Assembly: GCA_016931155.1 (NCBI GenBank)
Contig: JAFGFJ010000005.1
Coordinates: forward strand, 1,547-65,546
From: Candidatus Dojkabacteria bacterium
Lineage (GTDB): Bacteria > Patescibacteriota > Dojkabacteria > B142 > JAFGFJ01
DNA length: 64,000 nucleotides
Direction: 5' to 3'
Below are positions 3,776-35,267 of this stretch, in pieces; the first letter of the stretch is position 1, and each line of letters begins with the position of its first letter. Both the position numbers and the translations under genes were made by a program. The notes under the pieces were generated by a model. It was not told where the DNA came from, made no database searches, and saw only the letters and a program-made list of their open reading frames with translations.

Positions 3776-4473
3776 AAAACATAAAAGATGTAATAGGAAA
3801 AGGAAGCTCTAAGCTATTACAGAGCCACTTAATACAAAGGATTATCGACTTCGTTTTTTCCTTTAGCATAATGATCGTTGCCTATTTGCTTATTATCAAA
3901 TTGATTCAGCTTTTGACCAAAACTAGCCTTAGTTTTGACGATTCTGATAAACAAAACCTAGTACAAATTGCTTTATTAGCAGGACTGTTTGCGACGGTGA
4001 GAGAAGCAATAGCAAACAGACAAGAAGCAGTCAAACTAAGAGAATCTGAAGAAACACCTATTCTTACCATGCACATCAGGACGGTTGATATAAATGAGCT
4101 TAAAAAACATGGTCTTGATGGTTGGGATTTTTATAATATTGGTGAAAATATTTATAAATATATAGTTATTAGAAACACGGGGAAAGGTACAGCCCTTAAT
4201 CTCAAAGTTAATCCTATTGATAATCGAAACATGGAGTTTGCTGAATTTAAGAATTACGTCATTGCTCCTGGATCGGATGAGGTAGCAATTAAGCTAAAAA
4301 ACAAACCTGTAGATCAGAAAGAACTAAACGGGGTTCAGTATAAAATTGAAACTGAGACTATTTCAGGCAAAAAGTGGTTTTACAGATCAGAGATTAGAGA
4401 TGTAGAAAAAAATTACATTATGTTTGTAAAGATGACGGACAAAGAAGGAGAATTAATGAAAAACAATATCTAA
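3772..4473 (+). CDS. Hypothetical membrane-anchored protein, 233 aa: N-terminal TM helix plus a beta-rich soluble domain, embedded between two restriction genes
   Basis: ATG overlaps the RM gene stop (ATGA). The hydrophobic N-terminal segment is FVFSFSIMIVAYLLIIKLIQLL. No recognisable catalytic motif. Confidence 0.5.
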   Translation: MKNIKDVIGKGSSKLLQSHLIQRIIDFVFSFSIMIVAYLLIIKLIQLLTKTSLSFDDSDKQNLVQIALLAGLFATVREAIANRQEAVKLRESEETPILTMHIRTVDINELKKHGLDGWDFYNIGENIYKYIVIRNTGKGTALNLKVNPIDNRNMEFAEFKNYVIAPGSDEVAIKLKNKPVDQKELNGVQYKIETETISGKKWFYRSEIRDVEKNYIMFVKMTDKEGELMKNNI

Positions 4474-22219: not shown

Positions 22220-22729
22220 ATGCTTTATACAGTTGTTGATGTTGAGACCACGGGTCTCAGCCCAAGACAAAACAGGATAATTGAAATAGGAGCTGTTAAG
22301 GTTCTTGATGGGAAAGTTCAAAACGAATATTTTCACACTATTGTAAATCCTGGGGAGGAAGTAAGTTTATTTATTCTCTCACTAACTGAAATTCCAAGAG
22401 AAGAAATAATGTCAGCTCCATCAATTGAACATGTAATGCCTGATTTTCTTGAGTTTCTCGGAAAAGATTCTGTCTTTGTCGGGCACAATGCAAGGTTTGA
22501 CTATTCTTTTATAAATGAAGAACTCAGGAGGTATTTCTGGAAACCTATAAAAAATGAAGTGGTTGACACAATCAGGCTTGCGAAAAGAAGGTTACCTGGT
22601 CTTCAAAGCTATAGATTGGAGGCACTGATTAATTATTTCGGATTCAATCATAAAAAAAATCATCGAGCTCTTGATGATGCAAAAATTACTGCGGAAATAC
22701 TATTAAAGCTTCTTGATGATAAACATTAA
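22220..22729 (+). CDS. DnaQ-like 3'-5' exonuclease (DEDD family, DNA Pol III epsilon-like)
   Basis: Exo I motif VVDVETTGL. Exo II HNARFDYSFI. Exo III HRALDDA. Confidence 0.8.
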   Translation: MLYTVVDVETTGLSPRQNRIIEIGAVKVLDGKVQNEYFHTIVNPGEEVSLFILSLTEIPREEIMSAPSIEHVMPDFLEFLGKDSVFVGHNARFDYSFINEELRRYFWKPIKNEVVDTIRLAKRRLPGLQSYRLEALINYFGFNHKKNHRALDDAKITAEILLKLLDDKH

Positions 22730-23537
22730 AAGTTTTTTAAATAAAATAGAGATAGATGAATTTAATCGAGTGAATGTTGTTCTTGCTATCAATAAGAGAA
22801 AAGGAATTACTTCCCATGACCTTGTTGACGAGGTACGTCAAAAACTGAATACCAGGAAAGTTGGACATGCAGGTGCACTCGATCCCTTTGCGACAGGGGT
22901 TATGCTGATTCTTGTCGGGAAATTTACCAGACTATCTAACGAACTTGTTTCAAGTGAGAAAGAGTACAAAGCTAGAATTCTTTTTGGAATTTCTACTAAT
23001 ACACAGGATTCGGAGGGAGAAATTACGCAGAGAAAGGATATTCAAGTTACAGAAAGAGAAGTAATTAAAGCTCTCAAGTCATTTGAAGGTGGTTACGAGC
23101 AATATGTTCCTGTATTCAGTTCTGTAAAGATTGATGGGAATAAGCTTAGAAAAATGGCAAGAAGAGCGTTATCTTTCACAATTGAGGAAAATAAAGGGCA
23201 AAAAAGTGTGGTTTTCAAAATGGCGGAAGGTGATATAGAAGTAAATCTTCCAAAGAAGAAAGTGGAAATAAAGAAACTGGAGCTTAAGAGTTTTGGAAAA
23301 CAGAAATTATCAGGATATGAATTTGCGAAAAATTTGACGGATGAGTATCTATATTGTGAGATTAATGCAGCTGTTTCTAAAGGAACATATATGAGGCAGT
23401 TTGCTGAAGATTTGGGAGAAAAACTTGAAATTCCCGGAATGCTTCTTGAGCTTGAAAGAAGAAGGGTTGGAGAAATTGGTCTCTCAGACTGTATAAGTCT
23501 GGAAAAGTTAACCTTTGATAAGCCTGATGACAATTGA
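22713..23537 (+). CDS. truB: tRNA pseudouridine(55) synthase
   Basis: Catalytic motif GHAGALDPFATGVMLILVGKFTRL with the catalytic Asp in LDP. Confidence 0.8.
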   Translation: MMINIKSFLNKIEIDEFNRVNVVLAINKRKGITSHDLVDEVRQKLNTRKVGHAGALDPFATGVMLILVGKFTRLSNELVSSEKEYKARILFGISTNTQDSEGEITQRKDIQVTEREVIKALKSFEGGYEQYVPVFSSVKIDGNKLRKMARRALSFTIEENKGQKSVVFKMAEGDIEVNLPKKKVEIKKLELKSFGKQKLSGYEFAKNLTDEYLYCEINAAVSKGTYMRQFAEDLGEKLEIPGMLLELERRRVGEIGLSDCISLEKLTFDKPDDN

Positions 23538-24944
23538 AACTATTTTATTTAGTTCTTCCTTGCTCAAAATCATCCCAAGATAAATAATGATTTCTGAGCT
23601 CATGATGCCAGCAAATCCCACTTTGCTGACTTTGTTAATCACAATTGTGTGACTATCCTGTTGTAGTTGTTTTGTTTCTAGAAAGCTATACTGACGAGGC
23701 GACTGGAGTTCAATTTCTAATAGCTCTTTGTTGTCTACAAATTCATAAGTGTGTGGGTTTTCTGTTTTTTCATTATTTGAAATAGTAGATATTAAATTTG
23801 TAATTCCTTTTGTCGGCTCAAGAATTTCCCAATCCCCTTCTCCATCAGTTGTTCTTGCCCAGGACTTTCCTGTTTCGGTCTCAACGTATTGGAAACTGTC
23901 AGATATGAGACCAGATGGATTAAAAAGTGAGGTTTTCGCACTTGTGTTTGGAATACTGTTTTTCGATAAAATTATAACAAAACTCTTCGGTTTTATTTTT
24001 GTAGCCTCGATTTTTTGTGTTTTACTTCCGATGTCAATCTTCCAGTTACTTAGATCAACTTCGAAACTATCAGGATTGTAAAGTTCTATCCACTCGTTTC
24101 CCGAGTCGTTCCCGACAGGATCTGGAAGTATTTCATTGAGGTAAATCCTCGGTTCAATTGTAATTTGAGCGGTTTTTCTGATCACCTTCCCGGAATCAAA
24201 TGTTAATTTAAGCTCGATATTTCTATTTCCAATACTATCTGCAGTAAAAACCGGCTGTGAGGAAAGCAATGTTTTTCCCCCATATGTCCATTCGAACTCT
24301 TCAATACTGCTATTAATAGTTACTTCTGCTCTAAATATTATTCTTGAATTTAAAAAATATGAGTTGTTTTGTTCCCAATCAGAGGAGGTTTCCTCTTTTG
24401 AGAGTATCTCGACTCCTGAAGTGAAACAATAATCCTGGTCATATGCCTGGTTGATCATTCCTTTTGAGTGAGAGTGCGGATGTAGTTTTAAGTCATTGCA
24501 CTCATGACTTATTCTTTCCAAAGATATCCCTTCTATACTTGTGGAGTATTTTATACTATCAGAGTTACCCAGATGATCCAGGAGAGTAATTTCTTCGTTG
24601 GTATTGTTCAAAGTAATTGAAGGAAAAACGACTAGATAGCTGTAAGGATCGATTGACTGTCCATCCAGTGAAAAAAAACTTGTTTTATCTTTGAGTATCC
24701 ATCCGGAAAGATTTATATTTACAGACGTGGGATTGTAAAGTTCTATCCACTCATTCCCGGGATCTAAGCCGACAGGATTTGGCATTAATTCATTAATCAC
24801 TACATCCGTTGTAGCGGCAAAAACTTTTTGAGGTGAAATAAATAATGGTTCGAAAAAGATTACTGCTAATATAGCAAAAATCAATCCAGAGAGTATTGTA
24901 GTACATACTGCATGTTTTGTTTTCCTGACAACCTTAAGTTTCAT
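23508..24944 (-). CDS. Secreted or membrane-anchored protein with two lamin-tail-like (LTD) domains
   Basis: N-terminal TM/signal segment. Two copies of the LTD signature: VVINELMPNPVGLDPGNEWIELYNPTS and IYLNEILPDPVGNDSGNEWIELYNPDS. Confidence 0.65.
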   Translation of the reverse strand: MKLKVVRKTKHAVCTTILSGLIFAILAVIFFEPLFISPQKVFAATTDVVINELMPNPVGLDPGNEWIELYNPTSVNINLSGWILKDKTSFFSLDGQSIDPYSYLVVFPSITLNNTNEEITLLDHLGNSDSIKYSTSIEGISLERISHECNDLKLHPHSHSKGMINQAYDQDYCFTSGVEILSKEETSSDWEQNNSYFLNSRIIFRAEVTINSSIEEFEWTYGGKTLLSSQPVFTADSIGNRNIELKLTFDSGKVIRKTAQITIEPRIYLNEILPDPVGNDSGNEWIELYNPDSFEVDLSNWKIDIGSKTQKIEATKIKPKSFVIILSKNSIPNTSAKTSLFNPSGLISDSFQYVETETGKSWARTTDGEGDWEILEPTKGITNLISTISNNEKTENPHTYEFVDNKELLEIELQSPRQYSFLETKQLQQDSHTIVINKVSKVGFAGIMSSEIIIYLGMILSKEELNKIVSIVIRLIKG

Positions 24945-24978
24945 GCAGCAACTCTATCAGGGAAATATTAAAAAAAGA

Positions 24979-26070
24979 TTAAAAACTTCTATTAATAACA
25001 TAATCAGTTATTCCTTCCAGAAAATCTTTCCCTTCGTTGTTTATATTTATGCGGTTTAATGCTTTTTTTGCTTTTACAACGTACTGCAATGCCAGTTTTT
25101 TAGAATAATCAAGTGCACCTGTTTTGATTATTATATCTCTTACTATGTCTGCTGATTTTTTTGTTAGATTTTTATTACCAAGTGTTTTTAGTATGAATGC
25201 TTTATTTCCTTTGCTTGCTTCTTCCAAGGCTTTCACAATCAGCAGTGTCTTCTTTCCTTCTGCAAGGTCTGAGCTTACAGATTTTCCTGTTTTTTCTTTT
25301 TGGCCGAAAAGACCGAGAATATCGTCCTGAATTTGAAATCCTATTCCTGCATTTATGGAGTAATCACTTAGAATTTTCAGCTTTCTTTTTTCTGTACCTG
25401 CAAGTATTGCACCAACAAGTACTGGTGTTTCATAGGTATAGGTGGCTGTTTTCATTTTGAGCATATCGATAACTTCCTTTTCTGTTGCTTTTGGTTTATT
25501 CCCAACCTGGATATCCAGCATTTCTCCGTGAATTACAGTGGTGAGTTGTTCGTTTATTGTTTTTATTGCTGAAATTTTTCTTTTGTTGTTAAAGTTGGAT
25601 TCTGAAAGGAGTTTGAGTGCAAGATGACAGGAAAGATCTCCTGCACATATAGCAATACTTTTACCAAAATGCCTGTGGTCTTTTGAAGGAAAAGCATTTT
25701 TACTGAAAGCAGAGAAAGTTTTGTGAATAGTCGGAAAACCCCTTCTTTCTGCCGATCTGTCTATTATGTCATCGTGAATTAAAAGATATGTCTGGATCAA
25801 TTCAATAAAAATTGAAGTCTTCATCATTTCTTTCTCGTTGTTACCTCCAAGCATTTTATAGGAATAGAATGCCAATGCTGCTCTAAGTCTTTTGCCACCG
25901 GTTAGCGTCAATTCAGCAAGTTCTTTTGTCACTTGTCTGGAAAACTGGGACAGTTTTGCTGACCTTTTTATCTCTTCTCTGAAGAACAATTTTAGTCTAC
26001 TCTCTGCAATCCTCTTGTGTTTGGATAAAAGTATTTTTGCTAGATGTGATTTGCTGGTTGTTTTTTCCAT
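24979..26070 (-). CDS. trans-Polyprenyl diphosphate synthase (FPP/GGPP synthase family)
   Basis: First Asp-rich motif LLIHDDIIDRSAERRG. Second Asp-rich motif GFQIQDDILG. Confidence 0.85.
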   Translation of the reverse strand: MEKTTSKSHLAKILLSKHKRIAESRLKLFFREEIKRSAKLSQFSRQVTKELAELTLTGGKRLRAALAFYSYKMLGGNNEKEMMKTSIFIELIQTYLLIHDDIIDRSAERRGFPTIHKTFSAFSKNAFPSKDHRHFGKSIAICAGDLSCHLALKLLSESNFNNKRKISAIKTINEQLTTVIHGEMLDIQVGNKPKATEKEVIDMLKMKTATYTYETPVLVGAILAGTEKRKLKILSDYSINAGIGFQIQDDILGLFGQKEKTGKSVSSDLAEGKKTLLIVKALEEASKGNKAFILKTLGNKNLTKKSADIVRDIIIKTGALDYSKKLALQYVVKAKKALNRININNEGKDFLEGITDYVINRSF

Positions 26071-26193
26071 AAGCTATATCTTCAGTTTATCTTAACATAA
26101 AGACAGCTTGTAAAGATTTCGTAAGTATTTGCAATGGATCCTTATGTTAAGTAGTTTGTGTTAATTTATCGTTGTTGAAGGAGGTGAAGACAA

Positions 26194-26307
26194 GATGAAA
26201 AAACTAATTGAAGAAGCTATGAATCATGAGAATGCAAGGGACAAAGAAACTTTGGAAAAGGCAGCAGTTGAAAAAGCAATAAGTGGTTTTGCGCTTTGGG
26301 GATGGTG
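26194..26307 (+). CDS. Candidate 37-aa small peptide (MKKLIEEAMNHENARDKETLEKAAVEKAISGFALWGW) with a strong RBS
   Basis: GGAGGTG Shine-Dalgarno 7-8 nt upstream of the ATG. This is an unusually strong RBS for this genome. It lies 84 nt upstream of the histidine kinase. Confidence 0.3.
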
Positions 26308-26390
26308 ATTTGCATTTTCTGGTAATACTCATAAAAATATTTCACTTATAGTTAATTGTTGCTAGAATTGGTGAACTTAGTTTAAATTCT

Positions 26391-27794
26391 TTGTGCATGA
26401 ATAGTGCTGTATTTGTGAATGAATTGCAGAGAAGAAGATTTGAAATAGTGAAGCTATTTGCAACAATTTTCTTGGCAGGCTCGTTGCTTGCAGTGGTTCT
26501 TGATGCTTATGGTATTCTTTCAGGCAGTCTGAAAAGGAGTGAGTATGAGATTTTTCTCTTTATTGGTCTCGCTTGCTTTGTTCTTTTTGCCTTTATAAGA
26601 ACTTATCTTGTTCATAAAGCATTAACGCTGTCATTTGCGATTATTGTTGCCTTGCTTACTATTGCCGCTTTATATACGATGCTGGTCGGCGGTACAACTT
26701 CTGCAATATCCTTTCTTCTTATGACAATCTCTGTACTTTCCATTAGTATTGTGATTAGTGTAAAGATTGCTTTTTTTTACATCATTATTAGTTCAATTTG
26801 CACTTTCAGTATTTTCCTTCTGCATAACAAACAGATAATAGATTACACTCCATCGCTGACTGATTCCGGATTTGCAAATACACTAATGTATATTACATCT
26901 ATGTTGGTAATTACGTATGTTGCAGGAATTGCTTACTCGCAGATTGAACATTCTTATCAAAAAGCATATGACTATGCTAAGGAACTTGAAGAATTGAACA
27001 AACATCTTGATGAAAAAGTTAGACTACGCACTAAGCAGCTTCAAGAAAGTCTGGAGAGACAGGCAGATTCTGTTCACAGTGCAGCAGTGATGGGAAGTAT
27101 TGCAAAACCGATGCTTCATGATCTGGCTACTCCATTATCCTCTCTTGCAGGTGCACAGAGCCTTCTGAAAAAAGTAAAGTTTGATCAAAAAACACATGAG
27201 ATAATTGAAATGAGCAACCAGGCAGTAAGTCAAATAGCGAGAATTGTAGAAAATGCCAGGAATCTTATGGACAATAAAAATTTAGTAGTAGAGTTTTCTC
27301 CATATGATGTTATTTCGGTTGCTATCCTGGTCTCAAAACATGAACTTCAAAGGGACAATATTACTGTGAATGTAAGAATTGACCCAATGATTAAACTCAA
27401 CGGAGTTGTGGGTATCTTTGAAAGAATGGTAATAAATCTTATTATCAATGCGGTAGAAGAGCTGGGACAGTGTGAGAGTGATAGAAGAATTGATATAAAA
27501 GGAAATAATGAAGGTAAGTATTTTGTTTTAAAAATAAAAGATTCGGGTCGGGGAATAAAGAGGGAATTTATAGACAGGATTTTTGATTCAGATTTTACAA
27601 TGAAGAGTGAAAGAAATTTAGGTTTTGGTCTTCCATTTGTTAGAAATAGTATAGAGAAAAATTTTGCTGGAGATATTTCAGTTAGAAGCAAGTTGGGGGA
27701 ATTTACTGAATTCACACTTAGATTTGATAGGAAGTTCAATGCCAGAAAAATTAAGAAAGGTAAAAAAAATAAAGAGTTTTCTGTTAAGAAATAG
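26391..27794 (+). CDS. Membrane sensor histidine kinase
   Basis: About 5 N-terminal TM helices. H-box MLHDLATPLSSL. N-box NLIINAVEE. G1 DSGRGI. G2 GFGLPF. Confidence 0.85.
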   Translation: MCMNSAVFVNELQRRRFEIVKLFATIFLAGSLLAVVLDAYGILSGSLKRSEYEIFLFIGLACFVLFAFIRTYLVHKALTLSFAIIVALLTIAALYTMLVGGTTSAISFLLMTISVLSISIVISVKIAFFYIIISSICTFSIFLLHNKQIIDYTPSLTDSGFANTLMYITSMLVITYVAGIAYSQIEHSYQKAYDYAKELEELNKHLDEKVRLRTKQLQESLERQADSVHSAAVMGSIAKPMLHDLATPLSSLAGAQSLLKKVKFDQKTHEIIEMSNQAVSQIARIVENARNLMDNKNLVVEFSPYDVISVAILVSKHELQRDNITVNVRIDPMIKLNGVVGIFERMVINLIINAVEELGQCESDRRIDIKGNNEGKYFVLKIKDSGRGIKREFIDRIFDSDFTMKSERNLGFGLPFVRNSIEKNFAGDISVRSKLGEFTEFTLRFDRKFNARKIKKGKKNKEFSVKK

Positions 27795-29631
27795 TCTGGT
27801 AAGTCTCACCGAGGCGTACAATTTCAGAAATAAGTCATGTAGTGAAAAAGAAGAAAAGGTAAGAATACTCCTTCCTGTTGCCCTTACACTTCACGCATTG
27901 AGTTTTTGTCCCAGTAAAGTCTTTACAGAGCAGGAACATCGAAAAATTAATTCGCTTTTGAATTATATTATCAAAAAGGGTGACGGGAAGCTTTCTTATA
28001 ATTACTATACTGGCAACTCAAAATCGAGTAAAGAAGTCTTTTTCCCAGATGACCTTGATGACACGTCTTTTTGTCTTTCTGCGCTTTTACGATTTGACAA
28101 AGAAATAGATGAACGATTTTTTCTAAAAATAATTAATCTGGAGGTTAAACCAGGGGGACCATATAATACATGGTATGTTTCAAAGAGAGAAAAAGATAAT
28201 CGCTGGCAGGATATAGATCCAATAGTAAATGCTAATCTGCTATATATGATTTCCCTTTATGGTGTGAGGCTGAAATCCAGCGAGAAGTATCTCCTGGGTT
28301 GCTTAAAGAAAGGTATGTTTAATTCTCCTTATTATCCTTATTCAATTATTTTTATATTATTTCTATCAAGGTTTGCAAACAAAAGTAAGAATGACAAATT
28401 TACAGCTGTCCTGGTAAAAGAATTGCTGAAGTACAAATACACAAAACTTGAGCCAATGGAAAAGATTTTTTACTTGTTAGCTTCTGTCTATCTTGGTGTG
28501 TCAATTGAACAAGAAAATATTGATGAGGTTTTATTTTGGCAAAATTCTGATGGCTCTTTTCCGCCTCTACCATTTCGTTTTAATATGCAGCAAAGCACTA
28601 AAAGAAAAGCATTTACAGGAAGTTCAGTTATAACCTCTGCTCTTGTTTTAGAGCTTCTTCTTCTTACAATTGATCAAACAAAGAAGATAATTCCATCTTA
28701 CTCAATGTTTGACAAAAAAGCATCCAGGCTCATTGAAAAAAGCAGAAAGATTATTGCAAAAGAGTTGAGTGTAAATGGCATTAATAGAAAAGAACATGAT
28801 GCTCTTATCAGTCCGGGATCCTATAAAATACTGGATTTTTTTTTCAAGACTGCCTTGTGTCTTAGGGAATCACTAACAAGAAGTCAGCAGATTGAATTGA
28901 TGAAATTGTCGATTGCTGTATTTTTTTTGTGGAGCGGGTATACGGTTATTGACGAATTGATAGATAAACAATTGAGTATTGCGGCGATCCCTCGGGTAAA
29001 TACTTTAATAAGAATTGGATGGAGCTATCTATGTAGGATAGTTGACTTCAGAAAAATAAAAAAAGAAATAAACAAAGCATTTCTTGATTGTGATGACGTA
29101 TATTTATGGGAAATTGAAAGAATGAGATTTAATCCGGAAAAATTAGATTTTGATTTTAAAAAAATACTTACTTACAGATACATAGAAAAAAGAATGCAAC
29201 CATTCCTTATTTCAATAAGTTTTATTCCACAGATTTTAGAACTTTCAAAGAAAAAGGGAGTAGAAGTATACAGATTTTTTAAAGCCAAAATGATTATTGA
29301 TCAGTTTAATGATGATGCTCATGACTGGGAGGATGATTGGAAGGCTGGTAGAATGACTTATGTTCTATACAGATTGTTTAAGCAATCGGGAAGTGCTTCA
29401 AAAAATGGAAAAGATAAAAATATTTTTTATAAATCATTTTGGAGTAGCGTTATTGATGAGGTAATAAAAATTTGTGAGAAAGAATACAAAATAGCCAGAT
29501 CCGCAGTAAGAAGACTAAAACTAAATGAAAGGGAATTTTATTTCAATGAGCTTTTGGAAAAAGCCTATAAGCCTATCAGACAGGCGAGTAAAGAAAAAAA
29601 TAGGGCGGAAAAATTTATTCAGTCTCTATAA
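27739..29631 (+). CDS. Two-domain terpene-synthase-like protein: N-terminal class II cyclase-like domain (DxDDTS, QW-like repeat) plus C-terminal class I / isoprenoid-synthase-like domain
   Basis: FFPDDLDDTSF matches the squalene-hopene-cyclase-type DxDDT(A/S) motif. LFWQNSDGSFPP resembles a QW motif (Q..DG.W). The C-terminal half has DELID (DDxxD/DExxD-like) and, ~125 aa later, NDDAHDWEDD (NSE/DTE- or NxxxDxxED-like). The start is placed at the ATG at 27739, which has an AGGAAG RBS and overlaps the HK gene by 55 nt. The first in-frame Met is at 27664. Confidence 0.5.
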   Translation: MPEKLRKVKKIKSFLLRNSLVSLTEAYNFRNKSCSEKEEKVRILLPVALTLHALSFCPSKVFTEQEHRKINSLLNYIIKKGDGKLSYNYYTGNSKSSKEVFFPDDLDDTSFCLSALLRFDKEIDERFFLKIINLEVKPGGPYNTWYVSKREKDNRWQDIDPIVNANLLYMISLYGVRLKSSEKYLLGCLKKGMFNSPYYPYSIIFILFLSRFANKSKNDKFTAVLVKELLKYKYTKLEPMEKIFYLLASVYLGVSIEQENIDEVLFWQNSDGSFPPLPFRFNMQQSTKRKAFTGSSVITSALVLELLLLTIDQTKKIIPSYSMFDKKASRLIEKSRKIIAKELSVNGINRKEHDALISPGSYKILDFFFKTALCLRESLTRSQQIELMKLSIAVFFLWSGYTVIDELIDKQLSIAAIPRVNTLIRIGWSYLCRIVDFRKIKKEINKAFLDCDDVYLWEIERMRFNPEKLDFDFKKILTYRYIEKRMQPFLISISFIPQILELSKKKGVEVYRFFKAKMIIDQFNDDAHDWEDDWKAGRMTYVLYRLFKQSGSASKNGKDKNIFYKSFWSSVIDEVIKICEKEYKIARSAVRRLKLNEREFYFNELLEKAYKPIRQASKEKNRAEKFIQSL

Positions 29632-30329
29632 CCAATGTAAGCTAAGTTGAGCCTGAATCCCACACCGTGTACTGTTTCTACTACATGTTCGTCTTTGTAC
29701 TTACCTAGTTTTTTTCTTACCCTGCTAACAAGTGTGTCTATGCTCCCCTCCTCTACTTCCCTTACACCTCTAAATGTTTGGTTGATTAGATCATTTCTTG
29801 TGAGAATATCTCCTTGTGCTGCTACCAGTGACAATAGAAGTTCAAACTCTTTGTAAGATAGTTTAATTTCTTTATTATTTTTGCTCACAAATCTTTTTTT
29901 TGTGTCAATGTAGAGATCTCCAAGTATAATAACTGGATCCATCTTATGTATGGATAAAAGAGACTCTGCCTGAGCACCCAGAAGTTCGAAATCAATTGGT
30001 TTTCTATGGAATAGATTGGCACCTCTTTCATAGCTTTCCTTTTCTTTTGAAGAAGTGATGTCACTGGTAATAATTATTATAGGTGTTTTGAAACCGTTGC
30101 TTCTAATTTTGTTTACTATACTGAACCCACTTATACCAGGCAGGCCAATGTCGACAATAAATAAGGAATATCTATTTGTGAGTGCAAGCTTTAGTCCCTC
30201 ATCCCCTGAAAAGGAAATCCGGAGTTTGTGCCCCAGAGATTCAAGGTGTTTTTTTATAAAAAAAGAGAGATTTTTGTCGTCCTCTATCAGCAGGACAGGG
30301 TTGTGTAAATTGCCTGTTTTTTTTGTCAT
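29619..30329 (-). CDS. OmpR/PhoB-family response regulator (REC + winged helix)
   Basis: Receiver domain with the phospho-acceptor Asp in LFIVDIGLPGISG. C-terminal wH DLISRVRKKLGKYKDEHVVETVHGVGFRL. Its 3' end overlaps the terpene-synthase-like gene convergently by 13 nt. Confidence 0.85.
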   Translation of the reverse strand: MTKKTGNLHNPVLLIEDDKNLSFFIKKHLESLGHKLRISFSGDEGLKLALTNRYSLFIVDIGLPGISGFSIVNKIRSNGFKTPIIIITSDITSSKEKESYERGANLFHRKPIDFELLGAQAESLLSIHKMDPVIILGDLYIDTKKRFVSKNNKEIKLSYKEFELLLSLVAAQGDILTRNDLINQTFRGVREVEEGSIDTLVSRVRKKLGKYKDEHVVETVHGVGFRLNLAYIGYRD

Positions 30330-30390
30330 GGGTGTTTCTATTTACAGGAATTTATCAATATAGGATTGTCTAAATCTTTACAACTTTTAT

Positions 30391-30428
30391 TGAAAAATAA
30401 TGGAGACACTAACCCCCTAAGTGTCTCC
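30391..30428 (-). terminator. Rho-independent terminator for the M23 peptidase operon (minus strand)
   Basis: 8-bp stem ggagacac/gtgtctcc with an 11-nt loop. The minus-strand reading is followed by ATTATTTTTC. Confidence 0.5.
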
Positions 30429-30576
30429 ACTACAATTCTACTATTTGTGCCGGAAAAACTCAACAAAAAGTCTTGTCCAATGGCAGATGATACCAACAGC
30501 AAGAGCAATAATAACTCTTAAATTGCTTATACAGTCTCAGAATTATGGATTTATAAGTTTATTGAAACTATTAATA

Positions 30577-31887
30577 TCAGTTGCAGCTTCTTGGAGAAGA
30601 AGAAGGCTCCATTGTGCAGGAAAGGTGATAATAAAGCGTTCTTTTCCCGGTTGAACATCCATTTGTTTGACAGACTTTTGCGTAGATTGCACCACCATTA
30701 TTGCAAACAGGTGCCCAGGAAGGACAAGGCTCGAAACCAAAGTATACATAACCATCGTGTGCTGCTACAACCCATCCTCCTCCGCCAGTTGATATGTCAA
30801 TAGCATAATGAAATCCACCCCATCTTGGACCGTACCCGCTTGTTAGTGTTCCTTTTGGCTGTAGTGGGATTTTAAGTTCTCCATTTCCGCTACAGCTTGG
30901 ATAAGCACCAGCAGGTAAATAATTACATGGGTTAACATAACCTCCATCGTATACCATGAAATGCAGGTGAGCTCCATATGAATATCCAGTATTTCCCTCT
31001 ATGCCAAGAAGTGTTCCTTTGGCAACAGGCAATCCGTTTCCAACTTCACCCCGAGCCAAAATTGCAGCTACCAAGGCATCGTATTTTGCTACAAGTTTTC
31101 CTTCTTCATCAGAAAGGTTCTTTATACTATTTTGTGCACCGGTAATAGAATTATGGGATTTTGACAGTAGATTGTCATAAAATATTTTTTGCTGATTGTA
31201 AGTAGCCATATCAACCTCAAGGGAAATCCTTTCCTCATCCAGAACTGCCCGATCTTTCTCAAGTTGCACCTTGTCTTCTTCCTGAACCTTCTTTTCTTCT
31301 TCCAGGTTCTTTTTCATTATATTGAGATCTTTAAGGGTTTTGTTTATATCTTCCTGGATGGCTTTTCTGTATTGGGCACCTTTTATGAATCCATCAGTAG
31401 AGCTTGCGGTGAATACTATCGCAACATCTTTAGGTAAAACCTTTTGTTCAATATACATATCAGAAAGCCTGTTGTCAGTATCACTTTCGAGGTCTTTTAT
31501 ATATATTTCGGAGTCTATAATGGAAGAATCAGTCTCATCAATTTTATCAGTCAATATTTCAAGCTGAAGAACAAGTTCGTCAATCTTCAGTTTCTTCTCA
31601 CTGATTTGAAGATCCAGCAACCCAACCTCATTCTGAAGTCTGCTTATTTCTGTTGTATATTGTCCCTGAAGATATTTTTGATTGTTAATTTTTCCCTCAA
31701 GCTCTCTTTTCTGGTTCTTAATATCTGCCAGTCTATCTTGAACACTTTTGAGATCATCTTGAAGACCAGCCTTTACAGGAACAGACCCTGCTCCAAAATG
31801 TGAGAAGAATGAAGTATTTGTAAAAGACAAAACCAGTAATAAAACAGCTGTAATACCTATTCTTGCGGTTTTATTAAAAATTTCCAT
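30577..31887 (-). CDS. Coiled-coil M23 (LytM) peptidoglycan endopeptidase, EnvC/PcsB-like partner of FtsEX, with unusual motif order
   Basis: N-terminal signal plus a long coiled coil. GNTGYSYGAHLHF (HxH motif) comes before GYGPRWGGFHYAIDIS (HxxxD motif). The C-terminus is Cys-rich. Confidence 0.75.
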   Translation of the reverse strand: MEIFNKTARIGITAVLLLVLSFTNTSFFSHFGAGSVPVKAGLQDDLKSVQDRLADIKNQKRELEGKINNQKYLQGQYTTEISRLQNEVGLLDLQISEKKLKIDELVLQLEILTDKIDETDSSIIDSEIYIKDLESDTDNRLSDMYIEQKVLPKDVAIVFTASSTDGFIKGAQYRKAIQEDINKTLKDLNIMKKNLEEEKKVQEEDKVQLEKDRAVLDEERISLEVDMATYNQQKIFYDNLLSKSHNSITGAQNSIKNLSDEEGKLVAKYDALVAAILARGEVGNGLPVAKGTLLGIEGNTGYSYGAHLHFMVYDGGYVNPCNYLPAGAYPSCSGNGELKIPLQPKGTLTSGYGPRWGGFHYAIDISTGGGGWVVAAHDGYVYFGFEPCPSWAPVCNNGGAIYAKVCQTNGCSTGKRTLYYHLSCTMEPSSSPRSCN

Positions 31888-31903
31888 TTCAAAATCAGTG
31901 CAA

Positions 31904-32833
31904 TTATTTAATATAGTTTCTTATAGCAACGAAACTGTTAAAAGCTCCCAGTAGTATACCAGTTATAGTAGAAATTATAAAGAAGAGGAAGATTGAAATC
32001 GGATTTATGCTTATCCAGTCCAGATCTCCGAAAAAATTGGTTAAAAAGGTAATTGTGGGAGATCCAGCCTGAGCCACGAACATGAAAATTCCAAGCAATG
32101 CGAAGATTGCAGTTGATACAAATGCTCCAATTCCGCCATATATTCCGCCCTCCAGTATGAAGGGTAGTCGTATATACCAGAGGCTTCCTCCTACAAGCTG
32201 CATGATTCTTATTTCTTCTGACCGGCTGAACATTCTAAACTCTACAGTAAGCAGGGTAAAGAAGAATATGACTACAAACAAGAGTCCCATTATAATTGTG
32301 CCTGCAAGCCTTATCCAAAAAAATGCATCTTTTATATTGTTTATAATTTCCTGGCTGTACCCAATTTGGCTAATATCATCATTCTTACTTGCTTCAATTT
32401 TTGATTTATCTATAATTCCCTGGGCATCCTCTATTCTTTTGAGTCTAATGGCCAGGCTTGCAGGCAGTACATTTTCCCTGATTGCTTCTGCCGCAAGAGG
32501 ATTTGTTTTTTCATTGTGTTCTTTGAATTCCTGCAGGGCTTGTTCTTCGGATGTATACTCTATAAAATCGATATTCTCCTCTTTCTCCCATCTTGATTTC
32601 AAATCAAGAATTTCTTTTTTCTCTGTTCCAGGATTAAAAAAAATGTAAATATGAGGCTTATTCTCAATGAATTTTAAAAAAAGATTCGCTGTATATCCCA
32701 GGAATAAAAATATTTGTGCAACAATAAAAGCAAGTGTCATAACTGAGATGGATGCCCAGGCCAGCCAGCCACTTCTTTTTATTTGTTTTGTGCTTGTTTT
32801 TAATGCTCTAGAAAATGTTGCTTTTTGAGCCAC
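31904..32833 (-). CDS. ftsX: Cell-division ABC transporter permease FtsX
   Basis: Four TM helices with a large first extracellular loop. Immediately downstream of ftsE. Confidence 0.8.
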   Translation of the reverse strand: MAQKATFSRALKTSTKQIKRSGWLAWASISVMTLAFIVAQIFLFLGYTANLFLKFIENKPHIYIFFNPGTEKKEILDLKSRWEKEENIDFIEYTSEEQALQEFKEHNEKTNPLAAEAIRENVLPASLAIRLKRIEDAQGIIDKSKIEASKNDDISQIGYSQEIINNIKDAFFWIRLAGTIIMGLLFVVIFFFTLLTVEFRMFSRSEEIRIMQLVGGSLWYIRLPFILEGGIYGGIGAFVSTAIFALLGIFMFVAQAGSPTITFLTNFFGDLDWISINPISIFLFFIISTITGILLGAFNSFVAIRNYIK

Positions 32834-32849
32834 AGTTGTGATTTAAAAA

Positions 32850-33773
32850 TTAATTATTATTCTTTTTTTGTTTATTCTTAATCCCGATTTTTACCTTTTT
32901 TCTTTTTGGTTTCTCCCTGCGTGATTTTTGCTCACTCTGTCCCTCATTTTTCCCAATATTTGTTTCAGTCTTCTCCTTTTTTTCAGATTTCTCTTGAGAG
33001 GGGGGTGCTGACACTGGTTTTTCGTCTTTCCTCTGCTGGTCTTTTTCTTTTGTAAGTTGTGTGTTTACAAGAATTTTGGTTTCAAAATCCTCGACAGGAT
33101 CATATGTTCCTTTTATGTCGTCTCTGATCAGTCTTCCTCCTTCCATTCTGATAACTCTTTTCCCTAGAGTATTAACAATCTCTGAGCCATGAGTGGCCAT
33201 TATGATTGTAGTACCCCAGTTGTTGATCTTATTTAGAACCTGAACTATATCCCAAGTGCTTGTTGGGTCAAGATTTCCGGTTGGTTCGTCAGCAATAAGT
33301 ACTTTGGGATTATTTGCCAGGGCTCTGGCGATTGCAACCTTTTGTTTTTCTCCTCCGGAAAGCTCACGTGGAAAAGCATCCATTCTATCTTTAAGACCAA
33401 CTATTTCAAGTACATAAGGAACAGTCTCTTTTATATCATTATCTGATTTTCCTGCTGCCTCCAAAGCAAAGGAAACATTTTCGTAAGCATCTTTGTCTTC
33501 AAGTAGTTTGAAATCTTGAAAAATTACTCCTACCCTTCTGCGAAGCTCATAAACAAGATCTCTGCTTATATCTGCAAGATCCAAATCTTCAAAGAAAATT
33601 CTTCCCTCGTCGGGGATCTCTTCTCTAATAAGGAGCTTGATGGCTGTGGTCTTACCTGATCCTGAAGGCCCAACGAGGAAAACAAACTCTCCATCCTGGA
33701 CTTCAAACGAAACATTATCCAAGGCAGTAATTTCGTCGCTGTATTTTTTTGAAACTGAAAGAAATCTAATCAA
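32850..33773 (-). CDS. ftsE: Cell-division ABC ATPase FtsE with an ~85-aa K/E-rich C-terminal tail
   Basis: Walker A GPSGSGKTT. ABC signature LSGGEKQKVAIARAL. Walker B LIADEPTGNLD. Low-complexity tail KEKDQQRKDEKPVS...KRKKVKIGIKNKQKK. Confidence 0.9.
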   Translation of the reverse strand: MIRFLSVSKKYSDEITALDNVSFEVQDGEFVFLVGPSGSGKTTAIKLLIREEIPDEGRIFFEDLDLADISRDLVYELRRRVGVIFQDFKLLEDKDAYENVSFALEAAGKSDNDIKETVPYVLEIVGLKDRMDAFPRELSGGEKQKVAIARALANNPKVLIADEPTGNLDPTSTWDIVQVLNKINNWGTTIIMATHGSEIVNTLGKRVIRMEGGRLIRDDIKGTYDPVEDFETKILVNTQLTKEKDQQRKDEKPVSAPPSQEKSEKKEKTETNIGKNEGQSEQKSRREKPKRKKVKIGIKNKQKKNNN

Positions 33774-33939
33774 ATCTTTTTACTATTTTTACTATTGAGT
33801 ATTTTACTACATTTCCGGTGTTTAGTTTAGCTGAGGAGTCTGGAAAAATCAAAGGAAGATATAATTGGTTGTATTAGTAAGATTTTCTGCATATAATATT
33901 CTGGTCTGCCCTTCTTATTAATTTTTTATTCACCTTAAC

Positions 33940-34698
33940 ATGGCTAAAAAAAGAAAAAGGGGCAGTAAAAAGACAAAATTCAAAGGCAGTAATCCCGCCC
34001 ACCTTCAGAAAGAATCTCCGGAAGTTAATAAAAATGAAGAGGTTCATAAAGAGAAAAAGAAAAACATCTTTTCTTCAATTTACAATCTTTCCATAGGCAA
34101 GTTGCGTATTGTTGCATTCTTGCTTGTTATTATTGGCCTTATACTTATTTTTCTTGGTGGAGCAAGTCTTTACAATGCGGTCAAAACTCAAATTGATGAC
34201 AAAACAATGGAAGAGGAAAAGAGTGACGGGGAGATAAATAGTGGGATTCAAACAACAGAAAGTGAAAATATTGCGGAAAAAGCACAAGATGATGACAGGA
34301 ACGAAAATGTTGATAGTAATGAAAATGAAAACAAGGAAGAAAGAATGAAGGAAAACGGCAGTGAAAGTGACGAAAAAAATGAAGAATCTGATTCTGCTGA
34401 CAACAGAATACTGGAAACACAGGAGGTTAGTGAGGGAGCAAAAATGGCACGTCTTGCATCTGCAAGTAAGGCAGCTAGAACAGGAAAGTGGGTTGCTACC
34501 GACTATAAGCCAGGAGATATAAGTTCAGGAAATTACGAAGTTCAGAGTGGTGACACTTTATGGGAAATTTCGGAAGCAGTATATGGAAGCGGGTTTCAAT
34601 GGCATAAAATTCTTGATGTAAACTCGAGTTCTGTCGGGTTTCTTCCAAATGGCAGTCAGGCATTGATTGTACCTGGGCAGGTTCTGATTATACCGTAG
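33940..34698 (+). CDS. LysM-domain peptidoglycan-binding protein: basic N-terminus, one TM helix, acidic linker, C-terminal LysM
   Basis: LysM motif YEVQSGDTLWEISEAVYGSGFQWHKILDVN. TM segment IVAFLLVIIGLILIFLGG. Confidence 0.7.
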   Translation: MAKKRKRGSKKTKFKGSNPAHLQKESPEVNKNEEVHKEKKKNIFSSIYNLSIGKLRIVAFLLVIIGLILIFLGGASLYNAVKTQIDDKTMEEEKSDGEINSGIQTTESENIAEKAQDDDRNENVDSNENENKEERMKENGSESDEKNEESDSADNRILETQEVSEGAKMARLASASKAARTGKWVATDYKPGDISSGNYEVQSGDTLWEISEAVYGSGFQWHKILDVNSSSVGFLPNGSQALIVPGQVLIIP

Positions 34699-34721
34699 AG
34701 TGCATGATTTTGATTATCAAA

Positions 34722-35267
34722 TCAGTCTGAGGGTTTTCTAACATATGTTATATACTCGTAGTCAAAGTTGCTCTCTGAGTCTCTTTTGTGAGGCTCTTTC
34801 GAGATGACATCCCAGTTTTTGTCGCTGAATTCTGGAAAAAACACATCACCCTCAGGTTCATAGTCTACTATTGTCAGATATATTTTATCTGTAATATCAA
34901 TTATCTGCTTGTAAACTGATGCCCCCCCTAAAAAAAATATTTCACCACTTCCCGGAGATTTTTTAGCTTCGTTAATGGCATCATCAATAGAATTTGCAAC
35001 AATACCTCCAGGGACTATGTATTTTTTTTCAAAAGATAAAACAATATTTGTCCTGCCTGAAAGAATTCTATGTTGAATTTTGCCTTTAACCCACTTGCCA
35101 CCACTTCTAAATCTTGAGATAGATTCATGAGTGGCTTGTCCCATAATGATGGGGTGTCCCATGGTAATCTTTTTCGTTCTTATGAGATCTGCCGGGATAT
35201 GCCAGGGTATTTTGTTTTTGTTCCCGATTACCCTGTTTTTGGCCATTGCTGCGATTATGCTTATCAT
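34722..35267 (-). CDS. folA: Dihydrofolate reductase
   Basis: MISIIAAMAKNRVIGNKNKIPWHIPADL matches the DHFR N-terminal signature. Overlaps the thyA stop. Confidence 0.85.
   Translation of the reverse strand: MISIIAAMAKNRVIGNKNKIPWHIPADLIRTKKITMGHPIIMGQATHESISRFRSGGKWVKGKIQHRILSGRTNIVLSFEKKYIVPGGIVANSIDDAINEAKKSPGSGEIFFLGGASVYKQIIDITDKIYLTIVDYEPEGDVFFPEFSDKNWDVISKEPHKRDSESNFDYEYITYVRKPSD

Follow-up and report, generated by a model that had tools for sequence, protein, structure and literature searches.

A cyclase-prenyltransferase fusion protein of Candidatus Dojkabacteria is a candidate peptide maturase encoded with a short tryptophan peptide and a two-component system

Computational analyses of a 64,000-nucleotide stretch of a Candidatus Dojkabacteria genome (contig JAFGFJ010000005.1; the whole stretch is called the window), supported by a comparison with homologous loci, revealed a 630-aa protein with an N-terminal domain of the class II terpene cyclase kind (β domain) and a C-terminal domain resembling trans-isoprenyl diphosphate synthases (trans-IPPS; α domain); its gene is linked to genes for a histidine kinase, a response regulator, and a short peptide with a tryptophan (Trp) at or near its C terminus. 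We favor, with modest confidence, the view that this fusion protein is a bifunctional maturase that prenylates the Trp of the peptide encoded at positions 26195 to 26308 and then cyclizes the attached chain, in a pheromone-like loop with the kinase and the regulator. The open reading frame (ORF), at positions 27739 to 29631 of the forward strand, is present as the original prediction, made from the letters of the DNA, had claimed. It begins with an ATG, with which the N termini of homologs align; the longest frame for the gene spans positions 27664 to 29631 and has a TTG start. Its product has the same sequence (100% identity) as JW796_01285, a hypothetical protein from a metagenome-assembled genome (MAG) of Candidatus Dojkabacteria, and had no match in local Pfam or NCBIfam scans.

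Genomic context was taken from ten loci with called genes and from a six-frame survey of 87 loci (numbered with an L below). A cassette of an OmpR-type regulator, a small Trp-peptide ORF, a histidine kinase, and the fusion protein was found together in essentially all loci having upstream DNA, the exceptions being loci that a contig edge cuts off and a single locus masked with N. The fusion gene lay directly downstream from the kinase gene in essentially every locus, with frames that abut or overlap, and the small ORF was located between regulator and kinase. The cassette kinases have 5 to 6 predicted transmembrane (TM) helices in the first ~200 aa and no large loop. Nearly all loci include the regulator, which typically is the first gene and shares the strand of the others; the window, L001, L051, and L090 instead have it immediately 3′ of the fusion gene, on the opposite strand. 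Of the 87 loci, 17 (~20%) have a prenyl diphosphate synthase next to the cassette, as does the window, which thus contains all five parts (regulator, peptide, kinase, fusion protein, and prenyl synthase). No other neighbor was recurrent, the commonest additional gene occurring in 12 of 87 loci. The prenyl synthase and two-component system noted in the original prediction as neighbors agree with the gene calls and proved relevant, being parts of this cassette. L066 was the sole locus with upstream DNA and no kinase match; a run of N also breaks its peptide ORF, and a prenyl synthase lies upstream on the opposite strand.

The small ORF encodes a distinct peptide family. A hidden Markov model (HMM) was derived from 26 of the ORFs; in a search of 30,495 six-frame segments (1.08 Mb), it gave 76 matches at E ≤ 1e-3, all just upstream from a kinase gene and none elsewhere in the 1.08 Mb. 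The 76 distinct peptides are 33 to 41 aa long, and every one contains a Trp 0 to 6 residues from the C terminus; 71 of them have a single Trp, and a Pro precedes the Trp in 54. The common leader is M-x-x-(L/I)-h-x-x-h-L-T-D-x3-R, with Arg at position 15 in 57 of 76. No Pfam or NCBIfam model, including that for ComX, matched the peptides. The window peptide (37 aa; MKKLIEEAMNHENARDKETLEKAAVEKAISGFALWGW; positions 26195 to 26308, forward strand; peptide HMM E value, 5.7e-5) ends in a Trp, and its gene is preceded by a ribosome-binding site, GGAGGTG, at positions 26180 to 26186. Its subclade relatives were independently called as genes in L089, L090, and L091, and the subclade peptides share an "MN...R" leader and a terminal Trp.

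The β domain (residues ~1 to 313; positions 27739 to 28677) is an α/α barrel of the AstC/AsDMS/MstE type. Residues 44 to 307 matched the class II β domain of the drimenol synthase AsDMS (phmmer E value, 5e-11). In Foldseek searches, the best match was AsDMS (9m7e; E value, 1.8e-11), followed by MstE (6sbf; E value, 2.2e-6) and then by small squalene-hopene-type cyclases, and some members of the family carry a precomputed Pfam tag, PF28380 (AstC-like_C). Because of the AsDMS match, the fold matches, and this tag, the assignment of the β domain to class II, as predicted from sequence and modeled structure, is sound, and the original prediction was borne out as to the class II cyclase, its DxDD acid, and its QW-like motif. 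The string FFPDDLDDTSF occupies residues 101 to 111 (positions 28039 to 28071), and within it PDDLDDT (residues 103 to 109; positions 28045 to 28065) forms the DxDD general-acid motif (D105-L-D107-D108, with D107 the middle Asp). FPDDLDDTS aligned with the AsDMS acid motif FPDDLDTTS, its DxDD facing the DxDT of that enzyme. Conservation was assessed in 142 full-length homologs: P103, D105, L106, D107, and T109 are conserved at 92 to 96%, D104 and D108 at 87%, and GGPY is also among the residues conserved at 87 to 100%. The QW-like segment LFWQNSDGSFPP (residues 265 to 276; positions 28531 to 28566) aligned with QLADGGWP of AsDMS; the family consensus is QxxDGSWP, and the window protein has F where the family has W. 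In AsDMS, the phosphate is held by arginines R368, R370, and R415 (PMC12232559). These align with R155, D158, and P197 of the fusion protein, R155 is not conserved, and no AsDMS-type diphosphate-holding arginine cluster was found in the alignment of the 142 homologs; acidic residues E135, D158, and D160 are conserved in its place. A β domain that lacks the diphosphate-binding arginines fits a substrate already stripped of its diphosphate.

The α domain (residues ~321 to 630) has an isoprenoid-synthase fold, in which each of two conserved Asp-rich motifs lies where a long helix ends. The AlphaFold model (predicted local distance difference test score, 87.6) comprises two helical domains, both confidently predicted, and between them a linker of low confidence (residues 314 to 320), in keeping with the compact β-α fusion that had been proposed. 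The first motif, D405-E-L-I-D409 (DELID; positions 28951 to 28965), is at the C-terminal end of helix 381-408; its family consensus is YDDxLD, and it is preceded by the aromatic residues W398, Y401, and Y404, the last being the family consensus (I404 in the window protein). The second motif, Q522-x-N-D525-D526-A-H528-D529-W530-E-D-D533 (positions 29302 to 29337), aligns to FQxxDDxxD of IPPS and includes NDDAHDWEDD (residues 524 to 533; positions 29308 to 29337). D405, D409, Q522, D525, D529, and D533 are conserved at 100%, D526 and H528 at 99%, and W530 at 96%; W398, Y401, and R485 also fall within the range of 87 to 100%. All four sequence strings of the original prediction (FFPDDLDDTSF, LFWQNSDGSFPP, DELID, and NDDAHDWEDD) were thus located, and conservation of the motif Asp positions is too high for chance; the distance between the last two, given as ~125 residues, is close to that found (119 residues, D405 to N524).

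The relationship of the α domain to IPPS is seen in an hhalign comparison of the family with 15 operon prenyl synthases (E value, 1.9e-4), in which YTIYDDxLD aligned with the first Asp-rich motif (FARM) and RQLNDDAHD with the second (SARM; FQxxDDxxD). The domain thus combines the IPPS fold with both FARM and SARM. In contrast, the motifs for binding isopentenyl diphosphate (IPP), namely, IBM-1 (GK..R) and IBM-3 (RRG) (PMC10108439), are lost: GK..R was found in 0/142 and RRG in 13/142 members of the family (8/142 and 13/142 with loose patterns), compared with 15/15 and 11/15 operon prenyl synthases, and the GK loop following the SARM is deleted in the family. Since FARM and SARM align but the IPP motifs are lost, the α domain is, on sequence grounds, an IPPS-derived enzyme predicted to bind an allylic diphosphate but not IPP. 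From their positions at helix ends and by analogy with IPPS, both Asp-rich motifs probably face one cavity. The original prediction had likened this half to class I terpene synthases or to squalene and phytoene synthases. The isoprenoid-synthase fold and the two Asp-rich motifs stood up, and neither class assignment was supported by fold or Pfam matches: the closest fold relatives were not class I cyclases and no Pfam terpene-synthase model matched, and no squalene or phytoene synthase was among the top 60 fold matches, nor did PF00494 match. Compared with class I metal motifs, the domain has DExxD in the window protein (DDxxD in the family) and then DDxxDxxxD; the second motif is acidic at i, i+4, and i+8, with residues that are not the canonical NSE/DTE. 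MoeN5 and Ord1 were among the structural neighbors of the fusion protein. Structure prediction with Foldseek gave the expected α/α-barrel N-terminal domain and an α-fold C-terminal domain whose closest folds are not class I cyclases.

These features can be joined in a single scheme. The prenyl synthase encoded at positions 24979 to 26070 is the likely supplier of the prenyl donor, which would be farnesyl diphosphate (FPP) or geranylgeranyl diphosphate (GGPP). The α domain, a trans-prenyl diphosphate synthase fold minus the IPP site, would bind this donor via Mg2+ on D405/D409 and D525/D526/D529/D533, ionize it, and move the chain onto the indole of the conserved C-terminal Trp, as do ComQ, PalQ, and StheQ. 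D107 of the β domain might then protonate the terminal double bond of the attached chain and so bring about its cyclization, for which there are precedents in MstE, acting on a prenylated aromatic, and, as summarized in PMC13290415, in the C domain of ChrPC, acting on a prenylated Trp. The hydrophobic cyclic-terpene peptide, presumably cleaved and exported, would be released and sensed by the polytopic kinase, which would phosphorylate the OmpR-type regulator in a pheromone loop like that of ComQXPA.

Several points weigh against the maturase proposal. All evidence for it is computational. HMMER found no PDB relative of the α domain, a profile of which gave spurious matches alone, and the hhalign probability for the α domain against the operon prenyl synthases was just 48%; the geometry between the two domains is uncertain in the full-length model (predicted template modeling score, 0.65). 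The α domain retains the full second DDxxD plus D533, H528, and W530, as opposed to the metal-free pseudo-SARM of ComQ and StheQ, so that a three-metal ionization site of the class I type is equally compatible. The kinase (HisKA type, 5 to 6 TM helices) and the regulator (OmpR type) are not of the ComP and ComA types, and the cassette contains no protease or exporter gene. The likeness to ComQ, PalQ, and ChrPC is one of motifs and published descriptions, that of ChrPC at second hand, rather than of directly compared sequences, and the PDB hits included no structure of StheQ or ComQ.

The same motifs might instead belong to a bifunctional terpene synthase that makes a free terpenoid, the class II-to-class I route of the original prediction, in which the β domain would cyclize FPP or GGPP to a bicyclic diphosphate of the drimenyl or copalyl type, the α domain would ionize this product, and the two-component system would merely regulate expression. 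The DxDD motif is intact, and the top match of the β domain is a cyclase forming drimenyl diphosphate; DDxxD together with D525/D529/D533 at i, i+4, and i+8 resembles the NSE/DTE triad, loss of the IPP motifs is also a hallmark of insect terpene synthases derived from isoprenyl diphosphate synthases (IDS) (PMC10108439), and the prenyl synthase adjoins the gene. However, this route leaves unexplained the invariant Trp peptide and the strict linkage to kinase and regulator across homologs that are just ~23% identical, and the β domain lacks the arginine cluster with which AsDMS holds its diphosphate. Because the Trp-peptide gene and the kinase/regulator pair are conserved, the context favors a peptide Trp prenyltransferase-cyclase over a free-terpene synthase, which we regard as unlikely. 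A DesK-like membrane-homeostasis loop with a free cyclic terpenoid was also considered after the kinase linkage was found and was demoted when the conserved Trp peptide came to light.

It is also conceivable that the α domain prenylates an acceptor other than a peptide, perhaps a small aromatic compound or the head group of a lipid, and that the β domain cyclizes the product in a meroterpenoid route like that of MstE; the peptide would then modulate the kinase but have no part in this chemistry. The loss of the IPP site would fit, as would the use of nonpeptide acceptors by the structural neighbors MstE, MoeN5, and Ord1, but the cassette contains no gene for making such an acceptor and an invariant Trp near the C terminus is a known acceptor signature; we consider this quite improbable. 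Less probable again is a noncatalytic accessory protein that modulates the kinase by way of a bound isoprenoid, perhaps as a gauge of polyprenyl phosphate pools: the strict kinase linkage with abutting or overlapping frames would be in its favor, but the DxDD Asps and both Asp-rich motifs are near-invariant in the 142 divergent homologs, and mere binding would not need the DxDD acid. An enzyme of the PvCPS type, with an α domain elongating dimethylallyl diphosphate plus IPP to GGPP for the β domain to cyclize, is suggested by the FARM-like and SARM-like motifs and is the least probable of all, given the missing GK..R and RRG, the deleted GK loop after the SARM, the lack of a Pfam polyprenyl_synt match in the fusion protein, and the complete, separate prenyl synthase encoded alongside.

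The maturase candidate belongs to a large family. An exhaustive profile search with the C-terminal domain as the query, clustered at 50% identity, gave 1,940 clusters, 1,227 of them at E ≤ 1e-30; a word-indexed search recovered merely 21 relatives. Nearly all members are 600 to 700 aa long with the C-terminal domain at ~320 to 650, and the β-α fusion is constant. Stand-alone α-domain proteins were looked for among matches of 280 to 400 aa, and those checked were contig-edge fragments starting inside the β domain. Relatives are encoded in 248 species-representative genomes, and the best 80 of these are nearly all Patescibacteria (candidate phyla radiation [CPR]), including Saccharibacteria, Microgenomates, Paceibacteria, and Levy-, Shapiro-, Davies-, Doudna-, Taylor-, and Nomurabacteria. 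The otherwise CPR-specific cassette is also carried by many "binchicken" MAGs whose records bear the title "uncultured Gammaproteobacteria" (L010, L013, L022, L023, L025, L026, and others), which looks like placeholder taxonomy. The window subclade departs from the family consensus at residues 19, 23, 90, 406, 455, 486, 488, 489, and 521, which are otherwise well conserved; the changes include Q19 and G23 of the N-terminal QxxDG motif, W90 to Y, H489 to F, and R521 to D. In the peptide leader of the same subclade, LTD...R is replaced by MN...R, and together these changes are consistent with codivergence of enzyme and peptide.

In the window, where the GC content is 33 to 39%, the kinase gene (positions 26391 to 27794, forward strand) encodes a sensor with HisKA and HATPase_c domains and a polytopic membrane N terminus without a large loop. 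The OmpR/PhoB-type regulator gene (positions 29619 to 30329, reverse strand; Response_reg and Trans_reg_C) is convergent with the fusion gene, which it overlaps by 13 nt. The frames of kinase and fusion gene overlap by 56 nt in the window (positions 27739 to 27794), 83 nt in L001, 50 nt in L006, 4 nt in L090, and 8 nt in L091, and in the other loci with called genes the gap is merely 2 to 34 nt; such overlapping or closely spaced frames suggest translational coupling of the two genes. The product of the prenyl synthase gene (positions 24979 to 26070, reverse strand) is a short-chain trans-prenyl diphosphate synthase of the FPP/GGPP-synthase type (Pfam polyprenyl_synt E value, 2e-57), with IdsA and GGPP synthase as the top NCBIfam models, and carries GGKxxR, RRG, KT, and GK motifs. 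A candidate response-regulator box, TTGTAAAGATTTCGTAA (positions 26108 to 26124, forward strand), with a direct repeat TGTAA/CGTAA of 11-bp period, lies 71 nt upstream from the peptide ATG. Judging by this sequence, it may be a binding site for the regulator, which would imply autoregulation; it is the sole match in the window against a chance expectation of 0.35, which is weak evidence. In the form TTGTAA-N5-TTYGTAA, the box occurs 65 to 71 nt before the peptide start in three Dojkabacteria-like subclade loci (the window, L089 at 3978 to 3993, and L090 at 1956 to 1971), and in the window it falls within an imperfect inverted repeat (positions 26091 to 26151). A promoter and terminator scan gave counts at the level of shuffled sequence.

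Next to the prenyl synthase gene, positions 23508 to 24944 of the reverse strand encode a 478-aa protein that has two lamin-tail domains (LTD), a membrane helix at its N terminus, and no NCBIfam match. The same gene also adjoins the cassette in L089, which is syntenic with positions 22220 to 35267 of the window (RNase T, TruB, LTD protein, peptide, kinase, fusion protein, regulator, M23 peptidase, FtsX, FtsE, LysM, and DHFR). L089 lacks the prenyl synthase and has two additional single-domain receiver genes; its fusion gene, called at just 470 aa and separated from the kinase by 325 nt, may contain a frameshift.

The distribution of the cassette allows a broader proposal, which we put forward tentatively and with less confidence than we have in the maturase itself: CPR bacteria might broadly own a form of cell-cell signaling in which a ribosomal peptide with a cyclized terpene on its C-terminal Trp is made by the β-α fusion and read by a polytopic kinase, as an independently assembled, terpene-cyclizing analog of ComQXPA in ultrasmall, host-dependent bacteria. 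To our knowledge, peptide quorum sensing was not previously known in CPR bacteria. If correct, this would explain what a large family of "hypothetical proteins" does in CPR bacteria, and the known range of terpene-cyclized ribosomally synthesized and posttranslationally modified peptides (RiPPs) and of Trp-prenylated pheromones would reach past Firmicutes, cyanobacteria, and Bacteroidota to episymbionts with reduced genomes. The five genes (prenyl synthase, peptide, kinase, maturase, and regulator) would form a compact, experimentally tractable system in which to study the sensing of other cells or of hosts by CPR bacteria, and a minimal β-α enzyme pairing a γ-less class II cyclase with an IPPS-derived transferase would be useful for peptide lipidation and terpene-peptide engineering.

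Both the fused prenyltransferase-cyclase kind of enzyme and the logic of a Trp-prenylated pheromone with a kinase are already known; within the literature searched, what appear to be new are their combination, the distinct short precursor family, and the spread across CPR. The original prediction had recognized no described family of this kind, which is outdated, since fused prenyltransferase/MstE-like cyclase RiPP maturases, NctPC and ChrPC, were reported in 2024 (Hubrich et al., Chem 10:3224, as cited in a 2026 review, PMC13290415). By that account, the P domain of ChrPC is trans-IDS-like and prenylates Trp with C10 to C20 donors, and its MstE-like C domain cyclizes the chain; the P domain of NctPC has an ABBA fold. 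As far as can be compared by such a description, the fusion protein likewise has a trans-IDS-like prenyltransferase and an MstE-like, γ-less class II cyclase in one polypeptide. It differs from ChrPC as so described in that the cyclase forms the N-terminal half and the prenyltransferase the C-terminal half, the precursor is 33 to 41 aa long with no Pfam or NCBIfam model, the fusion gene is strictly linked to a kinase/regulator pair, and CPR bacteria are the hosts. Among other γ-less class II cyclases, the HAD-TCβ drimenol/drimane synthases AsDMS and AstC also have the cyclase fused to a second catalytic domain and the acid motif in the same position. Their partner, however, is an N-terminal HAD phosphatase rather than a C-terminal IPPS-like α domain; AsDMS has DxDT rather than DxDD, and its R368, R370, and R415 are not conserved in the fusion family. 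MstE of the merosterol pathway, the second-best fold match, is a β-only class II cyclase that acts on a prenyl chain already on an aromatic ring (PMC12232559); unlike the fusion protein, it has no partner domain, its substrate is a small molecule, and sequence similarity is low. The α domain differs from trans-isoprenyl diphosphate synthases (PF00348) in having neither a Pfam match nor the IPP-binding motifs.

The closest parallels in signaling are the ComQ-type systems, in which a nonelongating enzyme with the trans-IPPS fold likewise adjoins a short Trp precursor and a polytopic kinase. Bacillus ComQ prenylates a Trp near the C terminus of ComX, with ComP as the polytopic kinase and ComA as the regulator (PMC4008528); a C-terminal Trp is likewise the prenylation site for PalQ, in whose cluster a kinase is encoded (PMC10853753). 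The precursors ComX, PalX, and StheX all have the Trp near the C terminus. In the crystal structure of StheQ, a ComQ homolog with the IPPS fold, the FARM is D85-E86-x-x-D89, Q212 lies one helical turn before N215-D216-x-x-D219, and the Trp of the neighboring peptide is second from the end; ComQ and StheQ have only a pseudo-SARM with no metal bound (bioRxiv 10.64898/2026.08.29.745113). The register of the fusion protein equals that of StheQ, with D405-E406-x-x-D409 matching D85-E86-x-x-D89 and Q522..D525-D526..D529 matching Q212..N215-D216..D219; the invariant Q522 precedes the second motif by one turn, a placement shared with ComQ, StheQ, Ord1, and PalQ, and corresponds to a Trp-recognition feature of ComQ-type enzymes. 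Unlike ComQ and StheQ, the fusion protein has an additional class II cyclase domain, and its second motif is a full DDxxD plus D533 rather than the NDxxx pseudo-SARM. At the level of the locus, the cassette resembles ComQXPA in the adjacency of a modifying enzyme, a Trp peptide, a polytopic kinase, and a regulator. ComP, however, is a HisKA_3 kinase with 8 to 10 TM helices, ComA is a GerE-type regulator, the gene order is Q-X-P-A, and in a 2014 census ComQXPA was not found outside Firmicutes (PMC4008528); the cassette kinase is of the HisKA/HATPase_c type with 5 to 6 TM helices, the regulator is of the OmpR type with Trans_reg_C, and the usual order is regulator-peptide-kinase-enzyme. As kinase type, regulator type, and gene order all differ, the cassette would work like ComQXPA without being a member of it.

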